Part shown: positions 1-19,883 of the stretch, piece by piece | Numbering within the stretch: the stretch's first letter is position 1 | Layout: every line of letters begins with the position of its first letter | Origin: Thermoplasmata archaeon | GTDB taxonomy: Archaea; Thermoplasmatota; Thermoplasmata; Lutacidiplasmatales; UBA184 | Reading direction: 5' to 3' | Length of the DNA: 64,000 bases | NCBI GenBank assembly: GCA_035656255.1 | Contig: DASRSV010000022.1 | Span: 16,630 to 80,629 of the forward strand | Notes under the pieces: model-generated | The model's input: only the letters and a program-made list of their open reading frames with translations | Database searches by the model: none | Told to the model about the DNA's origin: nothing | Made by a program: the position numbers and the translations under genes

Positions 1-1962
1 GTCTTCGGTGCGGTCTTCGGCGGCCCTGTCGGGGCCGGGGTCGGCTGCGTGGCGGTCGGCCTCGCCACGGCAATCGCCTTCTACATGGGGACGCGGATGA
101 GCGCCCAGGACTCCCTGAACCAGCAGGCCGTCGCCTGGCTCCGGGCCGAGATCTCCGTCGTCGGGAACTGCGCGAACACCACGGGGGGCTTCCTCGGCAA
201 CGCCCTTCAGCTCCTCAACTTCACACAGGACTACTTCGACTCGCGCGCCGACTCGGCCGCTGTCGACCAGCTCGGGAACTCGACGTTCAACGTGCTCCTC
301 GACGAGACGCAATCCGGGACGGCCGTCCAGGCGATGGACGTTCAGTGGGCGGCCGCGCAGTCGGCGGCCCAGTGTCAGGCGGCGTTCCAGTCGTGGTACG
401 TCGCGAACTTCGGGCCGAACGGTCGCTTCAGTTCGGTCCCGTCGCCCAGTATCGACCTCGTCACGCTTGTGAGCACGACCGACTCCTACAACCCGACCTC
501 AGTCCCGCAGTGGGCGGGAGCTGACGTCGAGGGGCTGGGAACGTCCAGCAACCAGTACGTCTACCTCGCTCACGGGACGATCACCGTCGTCAATCACTGC
601 GTGACCACCTGCAACGGGAACAACTTCGTCTTCAACGCCTGGCCCGTCGGTGGAGGTCCTCCAATCCGACTCTGGGGTTGCACCGCGTCGAACACGACCT
701 GCTGGCCGTCCCCCGCAGTCTTCGCGGGTCCGAGCGGGATCTACAATGTCACGCCGACGTCGGGACCGTTCACCGCGAACTTCCTCTTCTACGGCGGCGC
801 GGACATCCAGACCGCTTCCAACGGCGGACAGTGGGTCGCGTGGACCGCCGAGACGGGGAACGTCACGGGCGGCAACTACCATGAGGGGACCATCGTCAGC
901 GCGGCCGCCAACGCACAGACCACCAACTCCGTCCCGTTCTACGGTAACGCCTCCTGGAACCCGGTCTACCCAAACCGGCTCCTGATCCGGTCCGCCCAGG
1001 CGGCTCAGACCTACTGGGCGTTTCTGAAGGGGCTCGGCTTCTCGAGCGCAAGCCAGATCCCGGCGGACTGCGTCATCCCATACCCGAACGAGGTGCTCCC
1101 GCCGACCGTCGACCTCCAGGGGCTCTCCATCTCGGAGTATCAGAGCCTCTTCTACGGCTGGCTCACCGGTCTCGCGACGTTCTTCAACACCACGCTCAAC
1201 TCGACGAACTTCTGCGGGACTCAGGGCCACCGGCAGTTCCAGATCGGCAACGACTCGTACTGGCCGCTGTTCGTCAATGTCACCCTCAGCGTCTACATCC
1301 CGAACGCGACCCTCTACCCCAGCGAGACCTACGGGAACGTCTCCTCCTGGGCGTACACCCACGTCCAGGCGCTCGTCACCCCGCTACTCGCGACCATCCG
1401 CTTCCCAATCGGGCAGCCGTTCAACATCCCCGAGAACGACCCGGTATCGGTTTTCCTGCCCCAACGCGGAGTGTGGCTGAACCTCTACGGGAACGGAACC
1501 AACGTCTCGCTACCGAACCCGATCTGCGCCACCGGGTGCGGGCTCGCCTCCACCAGCTCGGCAGGCCGGGCCGCCGCGGCCGTCCAGCCGCTCGCGTCGA
1601 AGCCTCCCGGCGATGCGGTCTACCTCTACTCGTGCATCATCGGCGGGGTCCCGGCCGCGAACTGCACGGTCGTGACCCAAACGATCAACCAGACGATCCT
1701 CTACCAGAACGCCTCGTGCCAGCCGTCGTGCGGACCGGGCGGAGGGGCGGGGTTCACCTTCACCCTGCCGAACCCGTTCGCTTGGCTGGCCAATGCCTTC
1801 TGCGCCCTGCTCGGACCGCTACTCGGGCCGAACTGCGTCGGCGACCTTTCGCTGCTCTTCGAGGTTGTCTTCGTTCTCGTCGTGGTCCTGGTCGTCGTCT
1901 ACGTCGTCAACGCGCTCTGGCCTCGCCGCGGAAGCTCGCGGGAGACGGGGAGAGGAGGATGA
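1..1962 (+). CDS. Large Cys-rich secreted/membrane-anchored protein, putative viral spike (5'-truncated)
   Basis: Frame is open from base 1 (VFGAVFGGPVGAGVGCVAVGLATAIAFY). Many N-x-S/T sequons and cysteines, C-terminal TM helix (LLFEVVFVLVVVLVVVYVV) followed by a basic tail. Confidence 0.7.
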   Translation, partial: VFGAVFGGPVGAGVGCVAVGLATAIAFYMGTRMSAQDSLNQQAVAWLRAEISVVGNCANTTGGFLGNALQLLNFTQDYFDSRADSAAVDQLGNSTFNVLLDETQSGTAVQAMDVQWAAAQSAAQCQAAFQSWYVANFGPNGRFSSVPSPSIDLVTLVSTTDSYNPTSVPQWAGADVEGLGTSSNQYVYLAHGTITVVNHCVTTCNGNNFVFNAWPVGGGPPIRLWGCTASNTTCWPSPAVFAGPSGIYNVTPTSGPFTANFLFYGGADIQTASNGGQWVAWTAETGNVTGGNYHEGTIVSAAANAQTTNSVPFYGNASWNPVYPNRLLIRSAQAAQTYWAFLKGLGFSSASQIPADCVIPYPNEVLPPTVDLQGLSISEYQSLFYGWLTGLATFFNTTLNSTNFCGTQGHRQFQIGNDSYWPLFVNVTLSVYIPNATLYPSETYGNVSSWAYTHVQALVTPLLATIRFPIGQPFNIPENDPVSVFLPQRGVWLNLYGNGTNVSLPNPICATGCGLASTSSAGRAAAAVQPLASKPPGDAVYLYSCIIGGVPAANCTVVTQTINQTILYQNASCQPSCGPGGGAGFTFTLPNPFAWLANAFCALLGPLLGPNCVGDLSLLFEVVFVLVVVLVVVYVVNALWPRRGSSRETGRGG

Positions 1963-1965
1963 ACG

Positions 1966-2256
1966 GTGGACGCCTTGGACGTTCTCACCGCGCTCTCCCC
2001 GTTCGCGGTCTACCTCGCGTTCGCCGTGATCCTCCTTCTCCTGTACCTCGAGGCCCGGAACGCGTGGAGCCGCGTGGGCACGACGAACCGGAGATCGTGG
2101 GCGGGATCTGTTGGAGTCCTCGTCGTCCTCGCGGTGCTCGCCCTCTTCCTCCTCGGCGAGGGCTGGGAGTGGCTCGGTGGGCTCATCCTGGCGGCCGTGG
2201 TACTGATCGGGATCGGTTGGGCCCTCGCCGCGACCTACCGCCGAAGGCGAGAGTAG
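1966..2256 (+). CDS. Small multi-TM membrane protein (96 aa), putative virion membrane protein
   Basis: GGAGG 7 nt before the GTG start, three hydrophobic segments, basic C-terminus. Confidence 0.75.
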   Translation: MDALDVLTALSPFAVYLAFAVILLLLYLEARNAWSRVGTTNRRSWAGSVGVLVVLAVLALFLLGEGWEWLGGLILAAVVLIGIGWALAATYRRRRE

Positions 2257-2259
2257 GCC

Positions 2260-2400
2260 GTGGTCCGGCGCAAGGGCGGGAGAACTCCGCGGAGTGGCCT
2301 CACCCTCCGCGGCTGGGACCTCGTCATCGAGGCGACGGTGATCGTCACGAGCACGGTGATCGCCGCGCTGATCCTCGTGTGGATCGGGGTGGGCCGTTGA
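2260..2400 (+). CDS. 46-aa single-TM protein (below ORF-track cutoff)
   Basis: GTG 3 nt after the previous stop. MVRRKGGRTPRSGLTLRGWDLVIEATVIVTSTVIAALILVWIGVGR: basic N-terminus plus one hydrophobic helix. Confidence 0.55.
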   Translation: MVRRKGGRTPRSGLTLRGWDLVIEATVIVTSTVIAALILVWIGVGR

Positions 2401-2452
2401 TGCCCCGAGCCCCGCGAGCTCACGATCGTTCTCTTCGAGAACGAGGTGAACC

Positions 2453-2764
2453 ATGAACCGGAAGGTAAGAGAGCGCCTCTGGACGAGCCGAGAGTCGACC
2501 GAGCGACGTTGTGGCGGAGTTGGAGCGGCGGCGGATTGGACCCGCCGGACCGGCCTTCAGCGTGACCGCCGAGGGCTGTCCACGGGCCACGCGGCGGTCC
2601 TGATCCTCGGGCTCGTGACCATCGTCGCGGGACTCTACTTCCTCGTCGCCTTCGGGACGATCTTCACGGGACCCGCGATCGCCGTCCCGGTCATCGGGCT
2701 CATCCTGGTCATTGTCGGGCTATCGGAGACCTGGATCGGCGAAGGTCGCCGGGCCCGCGGCTAA
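2453..2764 (+). CDS. Small 2-TM hairpin membrane protein (103 aa)
   Basis: GAGGTG RBS before ATG, basic N-terminus, two hydrophobic helices. Confidence 0.7.
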   Translation: MNRKVRERLWTSRESTERRCGGVGAAADWTRRTGLQRDRRGLSTGHAAVLILGLVTIVAGLYFLVAFGTIFTGPAIAVPVIGLILVIVGLSETWIGEGRRARG

Positions 2765-2787
2765 GCTCGAGGTAGGAGGCGACCACG

Positions 2788-3135
2788 ATGGCGCGCCGTC
2801 GACGGCTCTACTCCCCCGAGAGCCGGCAGGAGTTCGAACAGCGCTACGAAGCCGAGGGCTACTCGAAGGAGCGGGCCGACCGAATCTTCGGAGCCACCGT
2901 CGGGAAGGTCGCCGCGGAGCAGGCGGCTGAGCGACCTGGCGGCGTCAAGGTCGAGCAGGTGAAGGGCCACGTTGCCTACTTCGACCGCGGCACCCGGTTC
3001 CGCGTCCGACCCCACAGCGCTCGGATCCATTCACACGCCCACCCGCACGCTCGGAGGCACCACTGGGGACCCTGCGACGGCGAGTGCCGTAGCGGTCGTC
3101 GCGCTCACCTCCACGGGCGCCGGAGGCATGCTTGA
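2788..3135 (+). CDS. Basic Arg/His-rich protein (115 aa), putative nucleic-acid-binding protein
   Basis: AGGAGG RBS. The C-terminus is rich in His and Arg with two Cys. Its stop overlaps the next start. Confidence 0.7.
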   Translation: MARRRRLYSPESRQEFEQRYEAEGYSKERADRIFGATVGKVAAEQAAERPGGVKVEQVKGHVAYFDRGTRFRVRPHSARIHSHAHPHARRHHWGPCDGECRSGRRAHLHGRRRHA

Positions 3136-4655
3136 AACCCGCCAGCGCGGTCCTCGCAGCTTCGCTGACCCTTCTGCTCGCCTTCGGCTCCGTAGGCTCC
3201 GCCGAAGGCACGCTTGCGGTCGGCGGCAAGCCCGTCCTGCCGGGAGCGTGGGGGCTACCCTACGGGCAGGGAAGCTCCCCGGGCGGACCGGCCGTCTTCA
3301 ACGACGGGGACTTGGTCTACGACACCACGATCCAGTTCTACGTCCTCAATTCAGAGTCGCAGGTCCAGTCCCTGACAATCAGCCTAGAGCAGTTCGATCC
3401 GGGAACGATGACTCGGTACGTCAACGAGACCCAGGGGAACACCACCGCACTGGTCCCGGTCCAGTTCGACGTGCGCGAGGACGCTCAGTGGTCCAACGTC
3501 ACGGCGACCCTCGCGCCCGGCGGTCTGACCGTTATTCAGGTGCCGGTCCCAGCCGCCTCGTCCGCGCACCACATCGAGCTTCGTGCGGGGAGCGCGGTCT
3601 GGGAACTCCTGCACCTGACCCCGACCGGGAGCTCGCTCGCCGGGCTCTACTCGACCTGGGGGCTGGACGGCGTTCTCCTCCTCGAGGCGGCGGTCACCGC
3701 CGTCGTTTTCCTTGGATTCGCCGCCGCGGCCCGGGGGTTCGCGAAGCGAATCTATCGCCCCCCGAAGGTACCGATCTGGTGGCCCGCGGGGTGGATCATC
3801 GTCCCGCTCGGGTTCTTCTTCGCCGAGTACGTTCCCACGAACCAGTTCCTCGGCGCCCTCAGCCCCTTCCTCTACCCGGTCTTCTTCGGCGTAGCGGCGT
3901 TTCCCTACCTGCCCCGCCTCTGGAAGGAGTTCGAGTGGGCCGAGTTCAACGGCTTCCAGGCCCGCTCGTCGGTCGAGGCAGAGATCCCGAAGGCTGTATT
4001 GCCGGTGGTACGGACGAGGGAGGGACTTCGGTGTGCCCCCGAAACCTGGCGGGAGGCCGTCTACACGTTGTTCGGTGTGCCGCTCCCTCCAGTCCAGATG
4101 GACCGCGTGTCGTCCGCCGGTATCGAACTAAAGGTCGCACCGTCGGGTCTTCCCGCCACCTGCCCGCTGGCGCCCTGGTACGCCTCGGACGTCGATCTCG
4201 TCTACTGGTACGACGCACGAACGGGGTTGTCGAGGACCCGGCACCGGCTCCGATTGTTCCGGGAGGCACCCACCCCAGCGCCCGGGCGCGGGTCCGCCGA
4301 GCGACCACCCACGGAGGCGAAGATCCCTCGACGTTGGTCGCCCCATGTGGATACGGGACGCTTGACGGGCTCTTTCCCTCCGCTACGGGAGATCGCCGAG
4401 TACATGGCCGGAGTACGGGCGGTCGAGCAGGAGGCGTTGGATCACGAGGTCGATCGTCTCCTGGTCGCGCGACTGCGAGGGGATGTCCTCCGGCGGCAGC
4501 GGGAGGCCTCGACCGAACTGCTCGACGCCGCCCTGGAGTCGATCTACGCTGCCGCCTCGCCGTCCACCCGGGACGAGATCGAACGGACGATCCGCGAGGC
4601 GCGGAAGGGGGGTGAACCGATTGGCGGGCAAGCCGTTGCGAGGAGCGGTGACTGA
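3132..4655 (+). CDS. Membrane protein (507 aa) with signal peptide, extracellular domain, central TM helices and cytoplasmic helical tail
   Basis: GGAGG before a TTG that overlaps the upstream TGA. MKPASAVLAASLTLLLAFGS signal-like N-terminus, hydrophobic segments mid-protein. Confidence 0.75.
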   Translation: MKPASAVLAASLTLLLAFGSVGSAEGTLAVGGKPVLPGAWGLPYGQGSSPGGPAVFNDGDLVYDTTIQFYVLNSESQVQSLTISLEQFDPGTMTRYVNETQGNTTALVPVQFDVREDAQWSNVTATLAPGGLTVIQVPVPAASSAHHIELRAGSAVWELLHLTPTGSSLAGLYSTWGLDGVLLLEAAVTAVVFLGFAAAARGFAKRIYRPPKVPIWWPAGWIIVPLGFFFAEYVPTNQFLGALSPFLYPVFFGVAAFPYLPRLWKEFEWAEFNGFQARSSVEAEIPKAVLPVVRTREGLRCAPETWREAVYTLFGVPLPPVQMDRVSSAGIELKVAPSGLPATCPLAPWYASDVDLVYWYDARTGLSRTRHRLRLFREAPTPAPGRGSAERPPTEAKIPRRWSPHVDTGRLTGSFPPLREIAEYMAGVRAVEQEALDHEVDRLLVARLRGDVLRRQREASTELLDAALESIYAAASPSTRDEIERTIREARKGGEPIGGQAVARSGD

Positions 4656-5223
4656 CGCGCGCGTCCGGGTCTGGGCTCGCGCACTCGAGGCGTTACGCTC
4701 GGCGCGCTCGCAGATGCAGGAGCGTGACGAGCGAATCCGGGAGCTCGAGCGGAGACTCGACCGCCTGGAGAGGGAAGCGGGCCGTTCCGTGGACCTGAAA
4801 GTTACGACGACGGCTTTGGAGGGAGGGCTGGGCAACCGGCCGGCCACCGACGCGTACCGGAACCGGCAGATCGCCGGGTTCATGGCGAGCGTGAACGACC
4901 TCGGTCTCGTCTCGCGGAAGTTCGGGACGGAGGCGGCGCGGGTCGCGGTCCAGACCGGGGTCCGGGCGAACCTGGCGATGCTCTATGCGACCGCGCCGGC
5001 CTCGGTGGAGGAGGGGCGGCGCCGCGACCTCCTGCGCGTCCTGTTCTCTAGTCCTGCCGCGGCAGCGATCCTCGCGGGCTCGGAGGAGCGGCACGAGCGG
5101 TTCCGCCACGACGTGATCACCGCGGCGCTGAACGCCGGGGTCGAGACCTCCACGTGGGAGCTCGTCCGGAGGTCGGTGGAGCGCGAGGAATGGGCGACGA
5201 GCTCCACAGACGCCAACCGATAG
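4648..5223 (+). CDS. Coiled-coil hypothetical protein (~191 aa)
   Basis: GAGGAG RBS before GTG 4648, overlapping the upstream gene end (start moved from 4483). Heptad-like stretch ERDERIRELERRLDRLERE. Confidence 0.65.
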   Translation: MTDARVRVWARALEALRSARSQMQERDERIRELERRLDRLEREAGRSVDLKVTTTALEGGLGNRPATDAYRNRQIAGFMASVNDLGLVSRKFGTEAARVAVQTGVRANLAMLYATAPASVEEGRRRDLLRVLFSSPAAAAILAGSEERHERFRHDVITAALNAGVETSTWELVRRSVEREEWATSSTDANR

Positions 5224-6044
5224 GACCGCTCCGCTGGCTCTACGGACCCCCGCCCGACCCGCCGGGGCCGACGCCAGACGAGGTCCGTCGCCACTGGGTC
5301 GCCTACCTCCGTGACCGTGTGGAGAACCACTGGGACAACATGGTCCTCCTTGACGGGATGAGGGGGTCCGGAAAGTCGACTCTCGCCTATCAGCTCGCCA
5401 CGGCCGTCGACCGGACGTTTCGCCCCGGGGACATGGAGTGGCGTATCTGTGGGTCCCCGGAGACCCTGAGCGCCGCCGTCGAACGGGCGACGGTGGGACA
5501 GGTGGTGGTGTTCGACGAGGCGATGATGGGGTTCCGAGGCGTGGACTTCATGAAGCGCCCGTTCCAGGAGCTGGTCTCGATCTTCACGGTGAATCGGTTC
5601 CGAGGCGGCACGTTCCTGGTCCTGTCGCCGTCGATCCACCGGCTGGGAGCCTTCTTCCGAGACGACATCGCGGACGTCTGGATCGCCATTCCGGTCCGGT
5701 CCCGGGGACGGGCGTTCGTCCACCTGAGGACGCCGGGGATCCGTTACGAGTACGGCGAGAAGAAGCCGATCTGGACGAAGGAGTCCCTGTTCAATCCACT
5801 GGAGTGGGGCGAGTCCCGGGGACCCGGTTGGGAGGAGTTCGACCGCATTTCCCGCGGCCGGAAGCTGGAGGTGATCCGGGAGTCGTCGGAACGACTGCGG
5901 AGGACTCGGAGTCCCCGCACTTCTCGCGTACCCGTGGTCTGCCCCCACTGCGGGCACAGCTGGCGAGCGTTACCGGCCCGCCTGTCCCGACAGTGTCCCT
6001 CATGTCTTCGACGATTCAGAATCAGAAATGGAGGACCGGATTAA
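5190..6044 (+). CDS. P-loop NTPase with C-terminal Zn ribbon, putative viral packaging/extrusion ATPase
   Basis: Walker A GMRGSGKST, Walker B VVVFDEA, downstream NRFRGG..LSP element, C-terminal CPHC...CPSC. Start moved to ATG 5190. Confidence 0.8.
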   Translation: MGDELHRRQPIGPLRWLYGPPPDPPGPTPDEVRRHWVAYLRDRVENHWDNMVLLDGMRGSGKSTLAYQLATAVDRTFRPGDMEWRICGSPETLSAAVERATVGQVVVFDEAMMGFRGVDFMKRPFQELVSIFTVNRFRGGTFLVLSPSIHRLGAFFRDDIADVWIAIPVRSRGRAFVHLRTPGIRYEYGEKKPIWTKESLFNPLEWGESRGPGWEEFDRISRGRKLEVIRESSERLRRTRSPRTSRVPVVCPHCGHSWRALPARLSRQCPSCLRRFRIRNGGPD

Positions 6045-6153
6045 CATCACCCTTGGGGCTCCGGGGTTGTCCCGGCAGCGTCTCTGACCCCACAGGGTGG
6101 CGCCAGGAGGCGGCCTGCGACAATCACACGGCCGGCAGTATCACCCGGACCTG

Positions 6154-6615
6154 TTACGGCGGTAGCGGATGCCGTTCGAGCAGCAGTCGACCGTGGAGGT
6201 TCGTCGCGGTGAGCACCTCCCCTTCCGTGACGCTCAGGACTAGGATTTCCCCGAGGGCGAGCTTGTGCGGCAGCACGGCAGCGGGAGTCCGCGCGCCAGA
6301 ATCGGGGGACGCGGGCACAGGTGCCGCCGCCACAGAGCGAGAGGTTCCAACTCTGACCGCCCGGGTCGGTCCTGAAATCCGGTACATCTTTTCATGACCG
6401 GACCTCATCGCAATGATGGCTCCGCTGCGGACGAGTAACCGGAGTGCGTGATACACCGAGTTCGGGTGGAACTTTCGTTGGCTCGCCTTCGCGATCCGCT
6501 TCGCGATGTCGGAGGTCGCGAGGCGGGCGCCCGAGCCCACGGACCGCAGCTCGGCCAGGATCCACTTCTGCGCACCACGGGGATCGGACCGGGACTTACT
6601 TCGCTTGGCCGCCAT
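6154..6615 (-). CDS. Winged-helix DNA-binding protein
   Basis: ILAEL...LATSDIAKRI...NSVYHALRLLVRSGAI...KMYRI fits a wHTH pattern. Start moved to MAAKR at 6615. Confidence 0.7.
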   Translation of the reverse strand: MAAKRSKSRSDPRGAQKWILAELRSVGSGARLATSDIAKRIAKASQRKFHPNSVYHALRLLVRSGAIIAMRSGHEKMYRISGPTRAVRVGTSRSVAAAPVPASPDSGARTPAAVLPHKLALGEILVLSVTEGEVLTATNLHGRLLLERHPLPP

Positions 6616-6879
6616 CGAGTCACGGAGTCGATTCCTGACGTAAATGTATCCGGTAGTCTCCTGCGATGCCGGAGCGTCCACAATGGTCTCGGCTCATGCT
6701 GAAGATCGGAAGGCGAGTACTCCGCATGCTCCAAGGAGTACGAGCCGACACCGGCCGGTAGAGAGCGGATGGGTCGCTGCTGTAGGCCCAGAACCAGGGA
6801 GGCTCGGGCCAGCGATGTTCAGCGAACGGAACCCGAATTGATCCGTCCAGTCGCGTGACCGAGATCCCGGCTTAGGGCC

Positions 6880-7116
6880 CTACGCGGTTCCGGGTGATAG
6901 CAGGTTCTTCGCCTTGAGTTCAGAACGGTGATCAGCGCAGACAGTCACAACGATGGGGCCGCCGACCACTTCCGGGCCGAGCGGGCGGTAGTTGGGGCCC
7001 GGCCGTACGCTCACCGGATTTATCGCCCCACCGCAGACATCGGATTCCGGTCCGTCTTGGCCGGCAACTGAAAAGGCGTGGGTCACTTGACATTGGGCGG
7101 TCACCGCGCCGGGCAT
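6880..7116 (-). CDS. Small Cys/His-containing hypothetical protein (78 aa)
   Basis: ATG start, three Cys plus CADH, no recognised family. Confidence 0.4.
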   Translation of the reverse strand: MPGAVTAQCQVTHAFSVAGQDGPESDVCGGAINPVSVRPGPNYRPLGPEVVGGPIVVTVCADHRSELKAKNLLSPGTA

Positions 7117-8241
7117 ACTTGGCCGCTAGGGTTCGGGCAATATAGCTTTGGAGCGACGGCTCTGGGAAGTCGCCGGTTGGGGCATGATCAAGGTCCGGGG
7201 CCTCCCTATCGCCTAGGCACCGGTATCCTTTTCCATCCGCTCGTCGTCTCGCTTCAGGCGCTGATTTCTGGCAGGGCGCTCGACGCATCGGAGCTAGAAG
7301 CAACTAAGTCCAACCTCGCCGGTTGGCGGCCGTCGGGAGGCAGAGCAACGCCAGGAACTGAGACTGAGCCCTGGAGTGGGCACCTTGAGGCGTTCGTCGT
7401 TCTGGCCGCAGCAGTCGTTCTCGCGGCGCTGCTTCAGCTCGTCGTATTTCTTCCACCGGGGTCCGTGTCTTGGCACTGGACGATCGGCGTGATTGCGGTC
7501 GGGTTCGGCCTCGTCGCGTTCATCTTCCTCGGAGGCTGGGACTGGGCCGCGGGACGCCTGGAAGAGTGGTCGATCCGTCGCCACATTCGCAAGCATCCGG
7601 ATCTAGTGAACGATCTGATTTCCCTGCTCGATCAACACGGGCAGGTGTTCGGATCCGGGAACTGGTTCCTGAACTCGGGCAACTCAGTGATGCAGAATTG
7701 GCTCGCGGCGAGCCTTCAGAACCCCTGCCCATTCACCCCGCAGCAGAAGGAGTCTGGGAACCAGGCCCACGCCCAACTCATGGCTTGGTCGAACGCCTCA
7801 GTCTACTGGTCCTACCTCAAGTCCGTCCTTGAGTGGCGGATCAAGCACCGGGCGTTCGTCGACTCCTACGAGTTTTACTGGGCTGCCAAAATGGTAGGCG
7901 TCGAAATCTCGAGGGGGTTGCTGAGCGCGTCAAACTTCGTCAACGCGATCCGCAATGCCGGTGTCGACAGGCTCCCCAACTACAATTCGGACAGATGGGA
8001 CGACTTCCGTAACCGTGCCGATGAGGTGGTCCGGCTCGCTCACGAAATCAATCGGCGGGGCGAACTGGAACTGGGCCTGAAACTGGATCTGAACTTCCAG
8101 TTCGTTCCTCCGCTTTACCCTCGACCGGGCGACCCTCCCCCTACGGCAGCGCCGCGGATGGGAGAAGTTCAACCCCCGGTTGAGTCCCCAGCATCGGCGC
8201 CGCCACCGACACCCACCGCCACCGGCCAGTCTGCCCGATAA
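7078..8241 (+). CDS. Hypothetical 2-TM membrane protein with soluble C-terminal domain (start uncertain)
   Basis: Two clear TM helices (AFVVLAAAVVLAALLQLVVFL; WTIGVIAVGFGLVAFIFLGGW), a protein-like C-terminal domain and a Pro-rich tail. The first ~90 codons may be non-coding. Confidence 0.65.
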   Translation: MGHLTLGGHRAGHTWPLGFGQYSFGATALGSRRLGHDQGPGPPYRLGTGILFHPLVVSLQALISGRALDASELEATKSNLAGWRPSGGRATPGTETEPWSGHLEAFVVLAAAVVLAALLQLVVFLPPGSVSWHWTIGVIAVGFGLVAFIFLGGWDWAAGRLEEWSIRRHIRKHPDLVNDLISLLDQHGQVFGSGNWFLNSGNSVMQNWLAASLQNPCPFTPQQKESGNQAHAQLMAWSNASVYWSYLKSVLEWRIKHRAFVDSYEFYWAAKMVGVEISRGLLSASNFVNAIRNAGVDRLPNYNSDRWDDFRNRADEVVRLAHEINRRGELELGLKLDLNFQFVPPLYPRPGDPPPTAAPRMGEVQPPVESPASAPPPTPTATGQSAR

Positions 8242-8699
8242 CAGCGTCTGGTTTGGAGATGCGCAGACAGCCCGGTAGAAACCGAAGCGGGTCAGGGTGT
8301 GTATGACCCCTCGGCCAAAACCGACTCTTTACCTTAGGAGTGGGGTAGTTGCACACCCGTGAAGTCCGGCGTGGGAGATGCCCCCCTCAGATAGGCGCCG
8401 AGTGTACCTCGACGAGCTTACTCAACCGACCTGACATCGAATCGAACTTGAACCGCGGCGCAATGCCCCGGCCTGCTCGCCTGAAGACTGAAGTGGCCAG
8501 CGGCGAGCCCAACCGATCCCTCTGACACCGCCTTGAGAGGAGGCCGAATGGAGCTTCGTCGCCCGGAGGCGTGACCTAAGCCCGCCCCTCGAATCCAATG
8601 CCGCGCGCTCGACCCATGCCGTGGGGGGGTGCTCGAAAGGCTGATTTCATACCCGACCGGGCCGCAGTTCTCTAATCCGTCGAGCTGAATTCGTAGGGC

Positions 8700-9206
8700 G
8701 TGATGCCAACCGGCCCTTTGGTCTTCCTCGCTTATCGAATCGACAATGGCGGCGAATGCGATCTCCTCTCGCAGAAGCTGAAAGTGGACCTTCGAGCTCG
8801 TGTTGTCACGGTACACCGCGGGGCGGATCGCTCCCCCGCCGGCGAGTTGATCGAGGACCATGTGTTCCCAGAAATCGAGCGGAGCGACGGCGTGATGATC
8901 CTATGGTCAGAGCCGGCTCGGACGTCTGCATGGGTGAATGCCGAGTACCGCTATGCCCAGAGGATTGGGCGACGAATTTGTCTTGTCCAGTTCCCCGGGA
9001 TTGATCCACCCGACGATTGGCCCCCCGGGCTCAAGCGGGTAAAGCTACGAGGAGTGACTTTCTCCTCGCCCACCCTGGACGGAGGGATTCGATTCTCAAC
9101 GACCGGACCCGCTTACGAAGAAATGCTTGCCGAGTTGGTGGAGTTCGCCCACCGGGCCATGTCGTTCAAGCGAGGGGTAGAACTTCCCCCTTGGCTCAGC
9201 ACCTGA
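8700..9206 (+). CDS. Stand-alone TIR-domain protein
   Basis: VFLAY (cf. VFISY) at the N-terminus, VMILWS, and SAWVNAEYRYA with the conserved TIR catalytic Glu. Confidence 0.8.
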   Translation: MMPTGPLVFLAYRIDNGGECDLLSQKLKVDLRARVVTVHRGADRSPAGELIEDHVFPEIERSDGVMILWSEPARTSAWVNAEYRYAQRIGRRICLVQFPGIDPPDDWPPGLKRVKLRGVTFSSPTLDGGIRFSTTGPAYEEMLAELVEFAHRAMSFKRGVELPPWLST

Positions 9207-9330
9207 ACGATTCGGAGCGTGTCGCGCGCCTTTGCGTACGCTGTAATCGATCCGGGATTCGCGGAATCGGACCGGAGGAGCGCGCGTGAACACAAGTCGG
9301 TTAAGCCAAGGTCCCCCTACAGGCTCCTGA

Positions 9331-10572
9331 ATGCCGAAGAAAGCGGATGCGAAAGGGAGCGCGCTCATAGACTCTCTTCGCCGTTGGGTCACGGCCAAAC
9401 ACGGCACCGCGCCCCTAGAGAGTGCGACTGCGATTCCGGGCGCAAACGGCTCCGATCACCCCTTCATCATCACGTCAGTTCCAATCGCTGACCTGAGGTT
9501 CGAGGACCATCAGTACAACCCGCGCCACCCGAGTCTCGGGCGCGTGAACGAGCTGCGCGCGTCGGTGCACCAACTCGGGCTCCTGTCCCCACTTACCTGC
9601 GCGTACGTCGCAGGCGGAACTGAGGAGGTCGTCCTCATCGATGGACGCCATCGATTCGACGCGCTTCGCGCTCTGTCCGCAGAAGACAAGGAATGGGCGA
9701 AACGAGCGCGTGTGGATCTGAAGGTCTACTACGGCCTGACTAAGAGCGACCTCTTCCAACTCGCCACCTACCTGAACCGAACCCGGAAATCACTCGCCAA
9801 GGGAGAGTACTACAAGGTCGTCGTTCACATTTTCGAGGAGAAGAAGAAGGAGTTGGAGGCGCTGGACGGCAGGCCCCGAACTGAGAAGGAAGTTTTCCAT
9901 GCGGTCAGTTCCCATACCATCTCCGATAGAGATTTCGATCTCTCCATCGGCCGGATCGTCGGAATGGTTGCGTTCGATGAGGAGGAGGATGAAGCATGGT
10001 ATCCCATGGTGGGAACTCGCCAACAGGAACGTATCCGTGGACCACCGTCCCTGAGCGGCTACTGCCCCCTGACCGCCGGGAATCTTGCAGCCTTCCTCGC
10101 CTATCTGTGCAACCCCAAGCCGTACCCCGACAAAGGAGCGCTACGAGACACGGAAATCGGGAATGTCCTACATCTCGGCGCGATATTCCGAAAGCTGATC
10201 ATCGACAAGCCGGTCAAGTCCTATGAGACGGCTACAGGAACCAGCATCGCATGCAAACACTGGTGCCTCGTTGCATTCGGTAGCCTGCTCCACGAGAGCA
10301 GACTGTTCGCTCCGCAGGTACGAGCGGGGAGGTCCCCCTTAGCTGAGGCCGAGCCAGCCTGGGACCGCTTCACGAAGGTGATTGCCGAATACCGCGAAAT
10401 AATGGACGCGCAGGCCGCAATCGTCCGCAGGTACAAGAGCACCGACGAGCCCGGTTTTCTGAAAGACGCCTGGAGCTATCAAACCCAACGCGACCAGGTC
10501 AAGATACCTATGCAGAAGGCGTTCAAAGAACGCGGCATCTCCGACCTTGCCCGGGCGGTTTCCGCCAAATGA
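9331..10572 (+). CDS. ParB/Srx-fold N-terminal domain protein (DGQHR/DndB-like)
   Basis: YNPR, ELRASV..LGLLSPL, VLIDGRHRFDAL and KVYYGL...LATYLNRTRKSL. A TTAAG element lies ~28 nt upstream. Confidence 0.75.
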   Translation: MPKKADAKGSALIDSLRRWVTAKHGTAPLESATAIPGANGSDHPFIITSVPIADLRFEDHQYNPRHPSLGRVNELRASVHQLGLLSPLTCAYVAGGTEEVVLIDGRHRFDALRALSAEDKEWAKRARVDLKVYYGLTKSDLFQLATYLNRTRKSLAKGEYYKVVVHIFEEKKKELEALDGRPRTEKEVFHAVSSHTISDRDFDLSIGRIVGMVAFDEEEDEAWYPMVGTRQQERIRGPPSLSGYCPLTAGNLAAFLAYLCNPKPYPDKGALRDTEIGNVLHLGAIFRKLIIDKPVKSYETATGTSIACKHWCLVAFGSLLHESRLFAPQVRAGRSPLAEAEPAWDRFTKVIAEYREIMDAQAAIVRRYKSTDEPGFLKDAWSYQTQRDQVKIPMQKAFKERGISDLARAVSAK

Positions 10573-11897
10573 CCTCAGATCAAGGCGCACTGCTCGATTG
10601 CCTCGGTGTGCCGCCTAGTCATTCCGATCAAGTTCTTGGAGCATGGGCGCCTTCCAACCCCACCCTTCGAATGCGTTCGATGCTCGAACGTCTCGGGCCC
10701 GAGGCATCGGACCCTAGCTGGCCAGTCGGCCAGTCGCAGGATCGACTTCTGAAGTGGGGACTCTACTCGCCCTTACAGCTCGTCGCCCAGCAATGCGGAG
10801 CCGCCGCGCGTCCCACAATGGAATCCGACTTTCCTTTCTTATTCGGGTTCATGGGGTTGGTTACGCAGGGCCTGATTCATTTTCGGAAGCCCAAACCCCC
10901 CTCGGGAGCTTGGCCCCCCAAGGATCGCAAGGAGGCTCGTCGTTATTCCGCGCTCTATCAATCGGTCTTCCGACTTCGGGAACAACGAGAAGAGCGGGAG
11001 CCGCTGTCTCTCGAGGTCAGGTTGCCGCTCATCACAGATCCCTCACCGCTTCTGCCGCTAAAGAGGTTCGCGCAAGTCGTTGGGCGGGGGGTCGGCGTGG
11101 CAAACGGAGATCGGTTATCGGCACCAACTTCCCCTTCGGCACAGGCCGTCAAATTATTCCGTAACCACGAGGGGACGCCGAGTAATCGGCTCTACCGGCT
11201 TGACTCGGAATACGAGTACATTAGCCCAAAGGACTTGTCGTTAACCTTGCGACGGGACGGGCTGCTCACTCTGGCTTCCAGGTACAACCCGCTGCTCGAT
11301 TTCTACGATGGGGGGTGGCATGTCGTCGATATGGAGGGTGGGCGTCGGGCCATAGATCGACTCTTATCCGCGCGCTTCGGTGGCACTCAGATCGATTCAG
11401 ACCTGCCGAAGTTTCTGCTCAGGCTTGCTTACCACATGGCGACCCATTGGCACGGCGGGATACTCGCGGTGGTTGATGAAAAAGCCGCGGAGAAGCGCCT
11501 TCACCCGGCTCTGCCGGAGTCCAGGGCCATGACACTGCTCATCCGGAAGGCAGCGGGCGCGAAGACGAAGGAATTCCGGATCACCGACGTCGACAAGCCA
11601 GTGGACCCGGACCTGCCCCACAAGCCAAGCTGGGGGCTTGGACGCTTGTTCCTCACCCTCGCGATACAGGATGGCGCCGTGCTCTTTGCGCCGGACGGTC
11701 GGTTCTTGTCTGCCTCTCGATTCGTCGCCGACAACGACCAAAACATAGGCAGTGGTGGAGCGGGTGCCAGGGCCGCCCTCGCCTTGTCCAAGTGTGGGTT
11801 GGCGATCAAGATTAGCGCAGACGGCGCGATCAAGGTATTCGCTCGCGCCGAGAACGGCAGGCTTCTCGTGCCCGCAGCTGGTCTCCGGATTCGATAG
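10569..11897 (+). CDS. Protein with C-terminal DisA_N/diadenylate-cyclase-like domain and uncharacterised N-terminal region
   Basis: HGGILAVV, IQDGAVLF (DGA motif) and GAGARAALALS..LAIKISADGAIKVF matching the DAC fold. The RHR motif is degenerate. ATGA overlap with the ParB-like gene. Confidence 0.7.
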   Translation: MTSDQGALLDCLGVPPSHSDQVLGAWAPSNPTLRMRSMLERLGPEASDPSWPVGQSQDRLLKWGLYSPLQLVAQQCGAAARPTMESDFPFLFGFMGLVTQGLIHFRKPKPPSGAWPPKDRKEARRYSALYQSVFRLREQREEREPLSLEVRLPLITDPSPLLPLKRFAQVVGRGVGVANGDRLSAPTSPSAQAVKLFRNHEGTPSNRLYRLDSEYEYISPKDLSLTLRRDGLLTLASRYNPLLDFYDGGWHVVDMEGGRRAIDRLLSARFGGTQIDSDLPKFLLRLAYHMATHWHGGILAVVDEKAAEKRLHPALPESRAMTLLIRKAAGAKTKEFRITDVDKPVDPDLPHKPSWGLGRLFLTLAIQDGAVLFAPDGRFLSASRFVADNDQNIGSGGAGARAALALSKCGLAIKISADGAIKVFARAENGRLLVPAAGLRIR

Positions 11898-11900
11898 GCT

Positions 11901-13640
11901 CTAGGACGCGGCGAAGCTGCGGCAAATGTCATGTGGCTCGTCGACGATCCGCGCGTCGAACCCCTCGACAACCGGCCCGAATGTCGCGCCGTAAAGACGG
12001 GGCTGAAGGTACGCAACGATTCTCCGATAGTGCTTTCCGATGACGCCGAGAACGGTCGCGGTCCGGATTCGGAGGAACTCTGTGTGGCGTGGGTGAATGG
12101 CGTTGGTCAACGGGAAGTCATATCCCATGATCGCGGGGTTGCCCTCGTGGTCCCAATGGACGGGGCCGTAAAGCCCGCTCAACGTGATCCGATCGAAGTC
12201 GTCGCCTTCCACCCACCCTTCGGATTCCAGATGAGAGAGGATCCTGCGGTGGACTTTGCTTCGGGCGTACGGTCGGGAGCGCGAGCAGGGTAGCAAGAGC
12301 AATGCGGCCTCGGCGCATGGCTCAAACCCCTTGAGCGGAAACGCGTACTCCTTCGGTACAACAGATCCCTTGGTGGCCGCGGGGACTTGAGCAGAGGCGT
12401 GCGGCGCCGCTAGCCCGAGTGCAACTCTGGTCCGCCACCACGAGAGGTTGTGGAGAGCCAGAGCGGCCCAAACATCGGATCGATTGACTCGCCTCTCACC
12501 AATCATGAGGGGACGATAGGGAGGTCGCGTCAGGAGCTCGACGACGTTCTCCCTCCCAACTCCCATCAGGAGCGTGCATCCCGGGCAAGAACATCCAGAG
12601 TCTTCGCTCGGGTCGAAGTCGCGATAGTTGCCGATCCGATGATCAAAGACACGCTTTCGGAACGCCGCCTGAACATAGGTCGAGTTGTCGAACGATAGGG
12701 GCCGACAATCTGGGTGTCGCCTGACTAGTTCCCCAACCACGGCCTCTCCAACACCGAAGAGATGCAGAGGGGTGTTGTCGGCGGTTGTCCGCGCCATCCA
12801 GGAGAGTACTGCCTCGCAGTTCTGGAGGATGCGTTGCGGCTCCCTTGACAGAGGAACCTGACTCCCGAGTGCAATCCCGAGAGCCGGCGAGGAAAACGCG
12901 CCGACGGGTAGGGCGTCTTCAAGCGATCGGGCGCACCACGTGACTTCCTCCGCGGACCTGCCGTGGACCGCCAAGTACGCAGTCGGGGTACTGTTCGATC
13001 CGATCACCGCACTGGCCAGCCATGCCGAGTTACGCACGCTGGCAATGATGTGGCGCCGCGCCTGTCTCGGGCTGGCCCCGCGCGGGATAGGTGAGTCGAG
13101 GCTTGCGATTCGCGACGGACCAAACTTGAGTTGCATTTCGAGGACACTCTCTGGGGAGAGATCCATGCCCCACGGGGAAAGGTCGATTTTGTCCCCGTGA
13201 AGAATTTGAAACCCACCACTATCCAGGAAGACATCTCCGGACGGCCCCAGAAGTTCCTCGAGTTCCCGTTGGATTCGCACGCCACCGTACCACGGCGCGA
13301 ACCACGCCTCCCACGCTCGGTCGCTGAGTTCGTAGGCCGTGAAGTGCAGTGCTTGGACCATGAGGCGAGGCGGCCCATCGACTCCCCTCAGCCCGGCTTT
13401 GATGGCTTTCCAGACGCCGCCGTTCCTCGTGAGTCCGGGTGGCCCTGTGAGCAGGTGGACAACGGGGAAGAAGGATACCGGGCCCCCGCCTTCCTGCATG
13501 GGGGGGGATGAGAGGGCCACCGTTTGAGCGCTTCTGTCTCGCGGCGGGGCGAGCGAGGGTTTCCCCGGGCCGCTAGATTGGGCGACTGTCCCGTGGGAGT
13601 GCGCTCTGTCAAACTCAATCGGCCGGGACTGGGACCTCAT
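11901..13640 (-). CDS. tRNA-guanine transglycosylase (TGT/DpdA)-like enzyme fused to a C-terminal DUF5591/ArcS-like domain
   Basis: VFLDSGGFQ, HLFGVG, SFDNSTY, Zn motif CSCPGC...HNL, C-terminal LLLLPCSRSRPYARSKVH. Start is probably ATG 13640 or 13499 rather than 13898. Confidence 0.8.
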   Translation of the reverse strand: MRSQSRPIEFDRAHSHGTVAQSSGPGKPSLAPPRDRSAQTVALSSPPMQEGGGPVSFFPVVHLLTGPPGLTRNGGVWKAIKAGLRGVDGPPRLMVQALHFTAYELSDRAWEAWFAPWYGGVRIQRELEELLGPSGDVFLDSGGFQILHGDKIDLSPWGMDLSPESVLEMQLKFGPSRIASLDSPIPRGASPRQARRHIIASVRNSAWLASAVIGSNSTPTAYLAVHGRSAEEVTWCARSLEDALPVGAFSSPALGIALGSQVPLSREPQRILQNCEAVLSWMARTTADNTPLHLFGVGEAVVGELVRRHPDCRPLSFDNSTYVQAAFRKRVFDHRIGNYRDFDPSEDSGCSCPGCTLLMGVGRENVVELLTRPPYRPLMIGERRVNRSDVWAALALHNLSWWRTRVALGLAAPHASAQVPAATKGSVVPKEYAFPLKGFEPCAEAALLLLPCSRSRPYARSKVHRRILSHLESEGWVEGDDFDRITLSGLYGPVHWDHEGNPAIMGYDFPLTNAIHPRHTEFLRIRTATVLGVIGKHYRRIVAYLQPRLYGATFGPVVEGFDARIVDEPHDICRSFAAS

Positions 13641-13711
13641 AGTCAGCCTTTCGAGCACGACCCTCCGGCCTCGGGGCGGGCCTGGCGCACGATTTGACAG
13701 GGGGAGTTTGC

Positions 13712-13942
13712 TCACGGAGTTGTGGCGGACCGCCAACCCCACGAGTAGGCCAGCCGCTGGAGAAACCACAGGGTCGAGAACCCGGGAACGAGCCGAAGCG
13801 GGATTCGATTGGACTGGAATCCTCGAAGCTCCGCCCAGTAATCCCGTAAGAGGGCCCCAGGCGTCAGGGGTCCCGGAATCATGGAGGCGGAGTGCCACTC
13901 TGCAGCCTGCCCGTCCGTCCGGTCGACCTGAAGATATGTCAT
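13712..13942 (-). CDS. 76-aa hypothetical protein coupled to the glycosyltransferase
   Basis: ATG overlaps the GT stop (ATGA). MTYLQVDRTDG...FSTLWFLQRLAYSWGWRSATTP. Confidence 0.45.
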   Translation of the reverse strand: MTYLQVDRTDGQAAEWHSASMIPGPLTPGALLRDYWAELRGFQSNRIPLRLVPGFSTLWFLQRLAYSWGWRSATTP

Positions 13943-15578: not shown

Positions 15579-15622
15579 CGCCGCAGCCCCTCCCAGTCCC
15601 TCGGGAGGGTGTTCCCCAATTT

Positions 15623-19016: not shown

Positions 19017-19282
19017 GTCGCCTCCTCAAGGTTCCGCCAGAAGCGTTCATTCCGGGCCGTACTCGCCCGCCGGATCCGGTGCTCGACGGCGACGTCACGA
19101 GCGAACTGGACTCGTGGGGCGAACTCCGCCCGCACTCGGTCCCACTCACTCCGAACGCGCCACTCCGGCTTGGTGAACTCCTCCACGACGGAGTTGAGCC
19201 GGGAAGCGTAGCCCTGAAGCAGGAGGACGACGTTTTCCAGTTCGCGGCGGCTGAGCAGCCGGAGCTCGACGGTCTCGCTCAT
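19013..19282 (-). CDS. 89-aa helical hypothetical protein
   Basis: MSETVELRLLSRRELENVVLLLQGY..., overlapping both neighbours by 4 nt. Start moved from 19789. Confidence 0.6.
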   Translation of the reverse strand: MSETVELRLLSRRELENVVLLLQGYASRLNSVVEEFTKPEWRVRSEWDRVRAEFAPRVQFARDVAVEHRIRRASTARNERFWRNLEEAT

Positions 19283-19872: not shown

Positions 19873-19883
19873 GTCCCGGAACT
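19820..19883. repeat. Three tandem 18-bp palindromic units at a 23-bp period
   Basis: agttccgggcccggaaca (19820, perfect 16-bp palindromic core), agttccggtaccggaact (19843, perfect palindrome) and agttcatgtcccggaact (19866). The outer units each match the middle one at 15/18. Confidence 0.8.

Follow-up and report, generated by a model that had tools for sequence, protein, structure and literature searches.

We favour, with some reserve, the view that the block of co-oriented genes at the left end of the window (the whole stretch of 64,000 nucleotides analysed here) is the particle-forming module of a temperate archaeal virus that has a membrane but no tail and resides in its host genome as a 36.6-kb provirus. 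The element is probably the provirus of a new lineage of membrane-containing viruses, with a pleolipovirus-like organisation. The evidence comes from the conservation of the block, from the boundaries of the element that carries it, and from the homology of its NTPase to ATPases of archaeal viruses.

The gene block and its distribution

All eight co-oriented ORFs on the + strand described in the initial annotation are present and intact (Table 1). Their coordinates were right, but the proposed spike ORF is cut by the edge of the window, its true start lying 413 nt upstream. Some 3 kb of the block lie outside the window, on its left, and include a second glycoprotein gene as well as a conserved 94-aa gene. 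The same eight genes were obtained from independent gene calls on a 94.5%-identical contig of another sample. Relative to this contig, no indels were found, and dN/dS was comprised between 0.10 and 0.27 for 7 of the 8 module genes tested, the remaining one, tm103, giving 0.78 on few sites. The module genes are thus under purifying selection.

The order of the genes is shared by more than 30 loci, found in MAGs of Lutacidiplasmatales-like Thermoplasmata and in peat or soil metagenomes (genome, Logan and JGI contigs). It starts with the 94-aa gene, two signal-anchored glycoproteins, small membrane proteins and the basic protein, and continues with the 507-aa membrane protein, the helical protein, the NTPase and the winged-helix protein. 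The same synteny was found in a Thermoplasmata family of 49% GC. The conserved module ends at the 175-aa winged-helix-like gene, which has 59-62% identical counterparts at the same position in loci L019 and L023. In the L049 locus, whose spike is 53% identical, a DNA polymerase gene lies directly upstream of the module. The best PHROG of this polymerase is phrog_11768 (4e-27), the family of His2 PolB, and the contig that links it to the module, 16 kb long, also has small genes of the CxxC type, in which it resembles His2. The module had no match in INPHARED or IMG/VR, none of the contigs carrying it was terminally redundant, and no CRISPR array was found in the genome of the window (G000).

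The host had been taken for a Thermoplasmata-like archaeon, and it is indeed one, Lutacidiplasmatales-like; the carrier of the element is an uncultured soil archaeon. The NTPase was found in 18 of the 186 genomes of the order, and the 507-aa protein in 9 of the 401 genomes of the class. As the module is present in only 18/186 genomes of the order, we conclude that it is mobile, and not the syntenic core genome that the initial annotation had considered as a counter-explanation.

Table 1. Positions, in the window, of the module genes and of the other features of the element and its right border.
Feature	Position	Strand	Remarks
Large glycoprotein ("spike")	1..1962 (start 413 nt left of window)	+	791 aa in full; signal peptide
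96-aa protein, three hydrophobic segments	1966..2256	+	gene call also on independent contig
46-aa protein, single TM	2260..2400	+	conserved in L023, L067, L068, L073
103-aa protein, basic N-terminus, C-terminal two-helix hydrophobic hairpin	2453..2764	+	
115-aa basic, His-rich soluble protein	2788..3135	+	26 K+R vs 13 D+E
507-aa hallmark membrane protein	3132..4655	+	alignments A1, A10
203-aa helical (coiled-coil) soluble protein	4612..5223	+	gene call from 94.5%-identical contig
284-aa P-loop NTPase, C-terminal CxxC zinc ribbon	5190..6044	+	phrog_5484 at 1.7e-6
175-aa winged-helix-like protein, candidate regulator	6154..6681	-	weak winged-helix matches
Variable cargo hot spot 2	7078..15578	.	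Pfam
Conserved right-arm block: serine recombinase, two N6/N4 DNA methyltransferases	15623..19016	-	Pfam
Element right end: two small conserved genes, palindrome array (19820-19883), terminus GGCTGGGTTCTATAAGAAAGTGGTTA	19013..20303	-	
Element part inside window	1..20303	.	GC 58-68% vs host 70-74%
tRNA 3' end fragment, 27 nt (att copy), abutting the element's right end	20304..20330	.	
Island B, 2.2 kb, between att fragment and tRNA	20331..22535	.	
661-aa secreted, sequon-rich protein, single gene of island B	20404-22389	-	
tRNA-Val (TAC), 3' end = repeated att sequence	22536..22611	-	

The integrative element

The element occupies positions 359-36932 of the contig (C22 of G000), that is 36,574 bp, and relatives of about 35.5 and 39.6 kb were found. 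It is flanked by copies of a tRNA 3' end in direct orientation, located at C22 344-358, at 36933-36959, and in the tRNA-Val gene from 39165 onward. Its right terminus and TAGAACCCAGCC at the left end are inverted repeats of each other, and identical termini were found in three insertions at tRNA-Met, in genomes G066, G059 and G166. Together with the preceding 9 nt of the terminus, the att fragment makes a stretch of 36 nt which is 94-97% identical to the element end/tRNA-Met 3' end in G066 and G059.

The left 16.3 kb of the element lie upstream of the window and hold an att copy, an integrase-like gene, RecT, SNF2/DUF1156/DUF499 defence genes, NYN, the 94-aa gene and the first glycoprotein gene. 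The initial annotation had expected a replication gene, an integrase and the left att site in this region. The integrase-like gene and the att repeats at the tRNA are there, but no replication gene was recognised, in this element or in those of G059 and G066. The tyrosine-integrase-like gene, at the left end, gave weak matches only (phrog_1, 3e-4; NCBIfam XerA, 3.4e-4). The right-arm block of recombinase and methyltransferases is 80-90% identical and at the same position in G066, G059 and G166. There are two internal hot spots, in which the defence genes differ from genome to genome. The second one encodes here a 2-TM protein, a TIR protein, a ParB-like/DAC-like/TGT-DUF5591 trio, a GT2 and an epimerase, and in G059 and G066 different defence genes occupy this position.

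A conjugation (T4SS) or S-layer nature of the proteins had also been envisaged. Scans with Pfam, PHROGs and NCBIfam detected no S-layer family, and no VirB4, VirD4, HerA or FtsK-type transfer ATPase and no relaxase in the module and arms. As had been noted from the sequence, no terminase, portal, tail or capsid gene is recognisable either, when the module proteins are compared with Pfam and PHROGs. Finally, the initial annotation had opposed a strong use of Shine-Dalgarno motifs in the block to apparently leaderless host genes. The difference holds, with such motifs in 7 of 12 module genes and in 24 of 128 long host ORFs, but it is equally expected for the internal genes of an archaeal operon.

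Proteins encoded by the module

The spike has 19 sequons and 19 Cys, a Cys-rich ectodomain and a C-terminal TM segment with a basic tail. Its residues 125-169 form a conserved internal pair of Gly-rich hydrophobic segments, hairpin-like. Homologues, 13 in number, are 24 to 97% identical. No family or PDB match was obtained (Pfam, PHROGs, profile search of PDB sequences), and in profile comparisons the alignment of the spike family (A2) gave a probability below 1% with a five-virus VP4 alignment and with AvPV1 gp05 and gp06, and no similarity to SSV1 VP4/C792 or His1 VP27. The AF2 model of the spike was unusable (pLDDT 39). The second glycoprotein, directly upstream, has 339 aa, 12 N-X-S/T sequons, a signal peptide and a C-terminal anchor.

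The 96-, 46- and 103-aa proteins have one to three hydrophobic segments each. Profile similarity of these small proteins to HRPV-1 VP3 was not found, short hydrophobic proteins being poor targets for such a comparison, and neither was similarity to His1 VP21, despite the two-helix hairpin of the 103-aa protein. The latter, compared individually with VP21 and VP3, gave no similarity to either; it may be an internal membrane protein or a coat protein. The 115-aa gene ranks among the most widely conserved of the family, its product being 37-77% identical in at least 11 loci, divergent group B elements included. This protein is a candidate DNA binder. The 203-aa coiled-coil gene is kept in all group A loci.

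In the 507-aa protein, a signal peptide is followed by a beta-sandwich ectodomain (residues 33-161), three TM helices (177-263) and a beta-rich domain on the cytoplasmic side, and the C-terminal part is a long helix. Its AF2 model, of mean pLDDT 75, had as best BFVD match a 185-aa protein of the gammapleolipovirus Hardyhisp2 (Foldseek E 7.8e-4), with low TM-scores (0.15, and TMt 0.34). In the PDB the matches were generic Ig-like or Fn3 domains, those of Ig-like type scoring similarly. Judging by its length, the matched protein is HdyHp2_140, the signal-anchored gene product encoded just after the spike (ORF6/ORF30 position). No significant sequence-profile similarity was detected between the 507-aa protein and pleolipovirus ORF6, ORF7 or AvPV1 gp08.

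The NTPase has 538 relatives in 1.84 billion proteins. As the initial annotation had proposed, it is homologous to pleolipovirus-type NTPases: hhalign gave 92.2% with the VP8 family and 95.8% with AvPV1 gp10 (E 7e-9, 172 columns), both alignments reaching beyond the Walker motifs, and phrog_5484 is the best PHROG of both gp10 and the module NTPase. The scores with spindle-shaped viruses were 97.2% for His1 ORF16 (E 4.6e-11) and 94.7% for SSV1 B251. Profile similarity thus places the NTPase in the archaeal-virus AAA/"DnaA-like" ATPase clade common to pleolipoviruses and spindle-shaped viruses, a homology which supports a viral origin. As the profile fits the spindle-virus ATPases as well or better, it expresses no preference for pleolipoviruses.

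Alternative readings and comparison with known systems

The best NTPase fit being to His1 ORF16, with SSV1 B251 also matched, the block could be the structural module of a spindle-shaped virus, related to His1/Halspiviridae, Fuselloviridae or Thaspiviridae. The 103-aa or 96-aa protein would then be the major coat protein, the 115-aa protein would bind DNA in the manner of VP2, and the large glycoproteins would form the terminal fibre or serve in adsorption. In His1 too, signal-anchored proteins in tandem (VP26, VP27) precede small 2-TM proteins, and a protein-primed PolB is encoded; a small two-helix hairpin protein together with a very basic small protein, as found here, is absent from pleolipoviruses. 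We nevertheless consider this reading quite improbable: the small TM proteins are without profile similarity to His1 VP21, and the spike without similarity to SSV1 VP4/C792 or His1 VP27; among viral folds, the 507-aa protein is matched best by a pleolipovirus protein, and the NTPase gene comes last among the co-oriented genes of the module, as in pleolipoviruses, whereas those of His1 and SSV1 are placed away from the structural genes. An element that makes no true virion, either an integrated plasmid or a carrier of defence islands, seems unlikely. Its module would serve vesicle-mediated or contact-dependent transfer (compare the vesicles of Halorubrum plasmid pR1SE), or surface modification or exclusion. 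The large size of the element (35-40 kb), consisting mostly of cargo (defence systems, methyltransferases, RecT, serine recombinase), would agree with it, as would the failure to find capsid and recognised replication genes and the fact that only the NTPase matches a known virus protein, the membrane proteins and glycoproteins matching none. Furthermore, the integrase and the arms are 80-97% identical between genomes and the module 30-75%, which suggests that the module is an exchangeable cassette. On the other hand, the NTPase family is tied to virus ATPases, one relative joins the module to a virus-type polymerase, and transfer ATPases and relaxases were not detected. Pleolipoviruses themselves, moreover, are hardly distinguishable from vesicle plasmids.

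The proteins are also secreted, rich in N-glycosylation sites and membrane-anchored like archaeal surface proteins, and might belong to a host cell-envelope or S-layer glycoprotein operon of the core genome. This is hardly conceivable given the small fraction of genomes of the order and class in which the genes occur, the position of the module inside an att-bounded element of lower GC, the different tRNA sites occupied in different genomes, and the linkage to a virus-type ATPase. Distribution and insertion boundaries effectively refute it.

If the block is a virus module, as we favour, the genome would circularise after excision and be wrapped in a host-derived membrane bearing both glycoproteins, the larger of which may mediate attachment and, through its Gly-rich hydrophobic segment, fusion. 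The 507-aa protein would line the membrane together with the small TM proteins, the basic 115-aa protein would bind DNA, and the NTPase may power genome loading or budding. By analogy with pleolipoviruses, the virus would be released without lysis. The lysogen could benefit from the exchangeable anti-phage defence cargo of the two hot spots.

The initial annotation had likened the block to pleolipoviruses and viewed it as a possible new virus lineage for this host group. The novelty applies to the order Lutacidiplasmatales, of which no virus is mentioned in the paper describing it, but not to the phylum, because VP4-like proviruses have already been published in another order of Thermoplasmatota, the Methanomassiliicoccales (Medvedeva et al. 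2023, as cited in PMC10919331). By that account, these are likewise integrated pleolipovirus-like elements of the same host phylum, but they were recognised through a VP4-like fusogen, unlike the present family, which was not recognisable in that way. As for the pleolipovirus-like order, gene order and NTPase homology stand, but the spike and small membrane proteins have no detectable similarity to VP4 and VP3.

With His1 and SSV1, the element shares a homologous AAA ATPase, with His1 also tandem signal-anchored virion proteins and small TM proteins, and with SSV1 the integration at a tRNA. It differs from both in that the VP21/VP1-type coat protein (compared through His1 VP21) and the terminal fibre proteins are not matched, and in the placement of the ATPase relative to the structural genes. 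At 36,574 bp, it is about twice the largest known pleolipovirus-like genome (range for known pleolipoviruses, 7-18 kb).

In His2 and Hardyhisp2, a small TM virion protein, a signal-anchored glycoprotein, a larger signal-anchored spike and a signal-anchored protein are followed, in the same orientation, by a 2-TM protein, a small 2-TM protein and an NTPase with HTH or zinc motifs. These viruses, AvPV1 and the present module have in common signal-anchored glycoproteins in tandem, with membrane proteins and an NTPase next in order. The NTPase is homologous to that of gammapleolipoviruses at the profile level, the L049 polymerase shares the PHROG of His2 PolB, and the best-scoring viral match to the model of the 507-aa protein is from Hardyhisp2, generic Ig-like PDB domains scoring similarly. 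There are also differences from gammapleolipoviruses. No similarity was detected between the spike and VP29/VP4, or between the small proteins and VP3/VP27; a single 507-aa polypeptide stands between spike and NTPase where His2 has separate ORF30-like and ORF31-like proteins; the basic 115-aa protein is present, and the window's copy has no PolB. The element is integrated and of 36.6 kb instead of 16 kb, with integrase, RecT and defence cargo, and its host is a non-halophilic soil Thermoplasmata.

AvPV1, of 17.9 kb instead of 36.6 kb, encodes gp05, gp06 and gp08 to which no module protein has detected similarity, gp06 being modelled as a VP4 fold in its paper. It also occupies a tRNA site, as a temperate provirus with an integrase and att repeats. 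Its spike-like genes are likewise two in tandem, a large protein (550 aa) is encoded between spike and NTPase, and its NTPase is the closest pleolipovirus-type match, with phrog_5484 in common. In gene organisation, the closest analogues of the element are the gammapleolipoviruses His2 and Hardyhisp2, and AvPV1.

The module and its distribution

The eight co-oriented ORFs were found in the window as the initial annotation had described them, in a source MAG of 2.3 Mb that is 92% complete; the window corresponds to C22:16630-80629 of this genome. The spike ORF is truncated by the window edge; on the upstream contig it starts 413 nt left of the window and its full length is 791 aa. The protein labels proposed earlier were consistent with hydrophobic segments, charge and sequon counts (12 in the 339-aa glycoprotein upstream, 19 in the spike). 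An independent Logan contig gave the same gene calls, with 94.5% identity over 7.66 kb and no indels between the two module copies. Comparison of these copies yielded dN/dS values of 0.10-0.27 for the spike, the 96-aa and 46-aa small TM proteins, the 115-aa, 507-aa and coiled-coil proteins and the NTPase, and of 0.78, on few sites, for the 103-aa TM protein. Given the indel-free copies and the low dN/dS, we conclude that the module genes are functional. The reported contrast in Shine-Dalgarno use was recovered (an SD-like motif lies ahead of 7 of 12 genes in the module and of 19% of long host ORFs), but the same contrast is expected for internal genes of archaeal operons.

By tblastn and blastp against fetched loci, the module order is shared by at least 9 genome loci: 94-aa gene, glycoprotein 1, spike, small TM proteins, basic 115-aa protein, 507-aa TM protein, helical protein, NTPase and winged-helix gene. 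Logan contigs and 22 JGI contigs from soil and peat have it too. Conservation is highest in the 507-aa protein (37-75% identity) and the basic 115-aa protein, and divergence is fastest in the spike and NTPase. Relatives of the NTPase, 538 in all, required an exhaustive HMMER search, as a word-indexed search of 5.8 billion proteins returned only the query itself. Within the order, the NTPase was present in 18 of 186 genomes, at identities of 34% or less; a class-wide profile search found the 507-aa protein in 9 of 401 genomes, nearly all of one family. One distant 507-aa match, in a 49%-GC family, keeps the gene order, together with a serine invertase and a clear tyrosine integrase (L094 in the table). 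Syntenic core genome, which the initial annotation had named as one outcome that would overturn it, was not what these counts showed, and a core envelope operon is ruled out by the patchy distribution. The module is a mobile cassette.

Several related arrangements were noted. Outside the window, the source genome carries two divergent extra NTPase copies (26-28% identical; loci L033 and L034). A 94-aa homologue adjoins both, a 115-aa homologue adjoins the L033 copy, and the 507-aa gene is absent. This "group B" arrangement, also seen in L024 and L026-L030, may represent a second related element family. A full module was found on L042 (JAJZYM010000028.1, 13,380 bp), deposited under a "Proteobacteria bacterium" MAG; this is probably a binning error, the DNA being archaeal or viral. 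In the source genome and in genome G066 the NYN/OST-HTH gene is upstream of the module, and in soil contigs L079 and L084 (78% identity) it is downstream of the NTPase; occurring on either side, it is therefore mobile within the element family.

Another relative, L049 (Logan SRR24677565, 16,164 bp), has a spike 53% identical to that of the window. Directly upstream of its module lies a 668-aa DNA polymerase, whose best PHROG is phrog_11768 (4e-27), the one that also takes in His2 PolB (1.4e-210). Also ahead of the module are genes for a thymidylate-synthase-like protein and a DUF1643 protein, with many small ORFs. In layout L049 resembles a linear genome of the His2 type; the contig carries no direct or inverted repeat at its ends and is therefore incomplete.

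Ends, integration and cargo of the element

GC content is 58-68% from the contig start to tRNA-Val and 70-74% beyond. An integrase and a left att site, which the initial annotation had proposed to look for upstream, were both found there, as an integrase-like ORF and a repeat of the tRNA 3' end. The ORF beside the left att (444 aa) matched phrog_1 (3e-4) and the NCBIfam archaeal XerA (3.4e-4), both over residues ~21-153; these weak but concordant matches suggest an integrase-like protein. BLASTP against the HRPV-9 integrase, Pfam and PDB sequence searches returned nothing for it.

Positions of the element's features and of related loci (C22 and C29, contigs of source genome G000; L numbers, fetched loci)
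Feature	Position	Detail
Element	C22 359-36932; right end, window 20303	36,574 bp
tRNA-Val 3'-end direct repeat	C22 344-358	15 nt exact
tRNA-Val 3'-end direct repeat	C22 36933-36959	27 nt, two mismatches
Left terminus		...TGGGCC(C/G)GGACGG then (G/T)TCTAAGATGATAAGCTATTAGAACCCAGCC...
Right terminus		...GGCTGGGTTCTATAAGAAAGTGGTTA then TGGGCCCGGACGGATT...
Excised-circle junction, expected order		right end ...AAGAAAGTGGTTA, core TGGGCC(C/G)GGACGG, left end (G/T)TCTAAGATGATAAGC...
Inverted repeat, 12 nt	inside both ends	TAGAACCCAGCC / GGCTGGGTTCTA
Integrase-like gene and RecT, region	C22 405-3448	
Slot 1, G000	C22 3666-13544, upstream of window	SNF2 helicase with NOV_C; DUF1156 methyltransferase; Swt1-HEPN plus DUF499
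Slot 2, G000		TIR protein; TGT-DUF5591 set
Slot 1, G066		SNF2 helicase; Sacsin-domain protein; PLD-domain protein
Slot 2, G066		OLD-type AAA-TOPRIM protein
94-aa gene	upstream of spike	minus strand
NYN/OST-HTH gene	upstream of spike	
339-aa glycoprotein	upstream of spike	signal plus anchor
Palindromes	window 19756-19911	GTTCCGG-N-CCGGAAC, repeated
Second island	window 20331-22535	2.2 kb
tRNA-Val	window 22536-22611	intact
Extra NTPase copy, L033	C29:211227-211946	
Extra NTPase copy, L034	C29:239040-239759	
NYN/OST-HTH gene, L079	3434-4231	
NYN/OST-HTH gene, L084	6099-6896	
Region preceding module, L049	41-7334	
Distant module, L094	G204:C1:285500-305499	another Thermoplasmata family, 49% GC; 314-aa and 701-aa glycoproteins with same Gly-rich segment; 464-aa TM protein; 482-aa NTPase with C-terminal HTH; then serine invertase, tyrosine integrase

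In genomes G066 and G059, the integrase-like gene and the RecT block sit 35-40 kb left of a common right-arm block (serine recombinase, two N6/N4 methyltransferases and small genes), which ends at tRNA-Met with host genes beyond; genome G166 has the same right junction. The integrase-like gene of the source genome is 96-97% identical in G066 (L089) and G059 (L091), and RecT 80-85%, while the spikes of these genomes are only 32-65% identical. The difference points to cassette exchange or to strong diversifying selection on surface proteins. The termini, including the inverted repeat, are common to all four copies, and with exact termini and att sites excision is open to a direct check by PCR or read mapping. 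Near the right end, where the sequence is apparently non-coding, repeated palindromes may serve as an operator, an origin or an accessory site for a recombinase.

In the source genome, tRNA-Met lies on contig C31; its flank shares homology with the right flanks of G066 and G059, and the element end is absent from this locus. Direct insertion at tRNA-Val holds only in part: the intact tRNA is set apart from the element by a second island, which lies between this tRNA and the 27-nt tRNA 3' fragment. The only gene of the island encodes a secreted, sequon-rich protein of 661 aa with a weak Omp28-like match; the island has no recombinase and was probably left behind by a separate insertion. Element and island together fit successive insertions at one tRNA. 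No empty site was found among 150 genomes of the genus, which are only ~67% identical and do not keep tRNA synteny.

Two slots carry defence-type genes that differ from genome to genome. Slot 1 is flanked by the RecT block and the 94-aa gene, and slot 2 by the winged-helix gene and the serine recombinase. In none of the elements of G000, G059 and G066 was a replication protein recognised.

Module proteins and the nature of the element

An NTPase profile built from 40 sequences matched the pleolipovirus VP8 family (92%, E 5.8e-7, 151 columns) and AvPV1 gp10 (95.8%, E 7e-9, 172 columns), the latter alignment including a conserved RG-x-A/G motif after Walker B. NTPase and gp10 also share their best PHROG, phrog_5484. 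In control comparisons, PDB sequences gave matches of P-loop length only, but the spindle-virus ATPases SSV1 B251 (94.7%) and His1 ORF16 (97.2%) matched as strongly. The NTPase is thus homologous to VP8 and gp10 and places the module among archaeal non-tailed viruses, without choosing between pleomorphic and spindle-shaped ones.

In the model of the 507-aa protein (pLDDT 75), three TM helices join a beta-sandwich ectodomain to a cytoplasmic beta domain, and a long helix forms the C-terminus. Its best match among predicted viral structures was a 185-aa Hardyhisp2 protein (E 7.8e-4), with low TM-scores and PDB Ig-like domains scoring alike; by length, this is the signal-anchored gene just after the spike, in the ORF6/ORF30 position. 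The 507-aa protein may thus be a fusion of ORF6-like and ORF7-like proteins, of which the match is a hint, not proof. Profile comparisons gave probabilities below 10% for the 507-aa protein against ORF6, ORF7 and gp08, for the spike against VP4, AvPV1 gp05/gp06, SSV1 C792 and His1 VP27, and for the small TM proteins against VP3 and VP21. The spike family had no match in Pfam, PHROGs or PDB sequences, and a sub-threshold NCBIfam match covered its Gly-rich segment only. AF2 prediction of the full spike from 13 sequences gave an unusable model (pLDDT 39).

On balance we lean towards a provirus representing a new lineage of non-tailed archaeal viruses with a membrane and a pleolipovirus-like organisation. 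A spindle-shaped virus would account for the B251 and ORF16 matches, but with neither the spike resembling C792 or VP27 nor the small TM proteins VP21, we regard it as distinctly improbable. A non-viral integrative or vesicle-plasmid-like element is also unlikely. Membership of Pleolipoviridae is not established: the genome is too large for the family, and on the hallmark VP4 the profile comparison gave no match and the spike model was unusable.

Under the provirus reading, a fuller picture can be drawn tentatively: a lineage of temperate, membrane-enveloped archaeal viruses that is new at family level, has genomes of 35-40 kb and is the first for the soil order Lutacidiplasmatales. Its entry glycoprotein would be unrelated in sequence to VP4 and would contain a Gly-rich hairpin resembling a fusion peptide; a membrane protein of fused ORF6/ORF7 type, a basic nucleoprotein-like protein and two defence-gene hot spots would complete the set. 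Through the shared ATPase it could bridge the pleomorphic and spindle-shaped groups. Should the element be a virus, the range of enveloped or pleomorphic archaeal viruses would reach into temperate terrestrial soils, a new candidate for a prokaryotic membrane-fusion protein would be at hand, and such viruses would be seen to carry exchangeable defence cargo.

Lutacidiplasmatales, an uncultured order of archaea, abound in acid soils and peat. No virus of the order was mentioned in the literature searched, nor in the paper describing it (PMC9287336). With its 2.3 Mb and a host GC of about 70%, the source genome agrees with that paper's account of the order. According to PMC10919331, VP4-like proviruses had already been recognised in Methanomassiliicoccales (Thermoplasmatota), as had AvPV1-like viruses in Archaeoglobi. 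A 2026 survey covering 5,041 genomes of Thermoplasmatota and 2,275 of Nanobdellota reported only 30 provirus regions in both phyla combined (PMC13573593). By tblastn, the NTPase and 507-aa protein had no match in 50,697 phage and archaeal-virus records. IMG/VR scans and INPHARED gave no relative; standard virus-hallmark searches miss this family. None of the related contigs ended in direct or inverted repeats, and a complete free genome was therefore not obtained. A CRISPR array scan of the source genome found none.

The order of spike, membrane proteins and NTPase, read initially as pleolipovirus-like, is indeed that of His2, Hardyhisp2 and AvPV1, with two tandem signal-anchored glycoproteins followed by membrane proteins and an NTPase, all co-oriented, but the likeness does not extend to profile matches of the spike and small proteins. 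The element genomes, at 35-40 kb, are about twice the size of any pleolipovirus-like genome, and the module has a basic 115-aa protein, possibly nucleoprotein-like, that pleolipoviruses lack.
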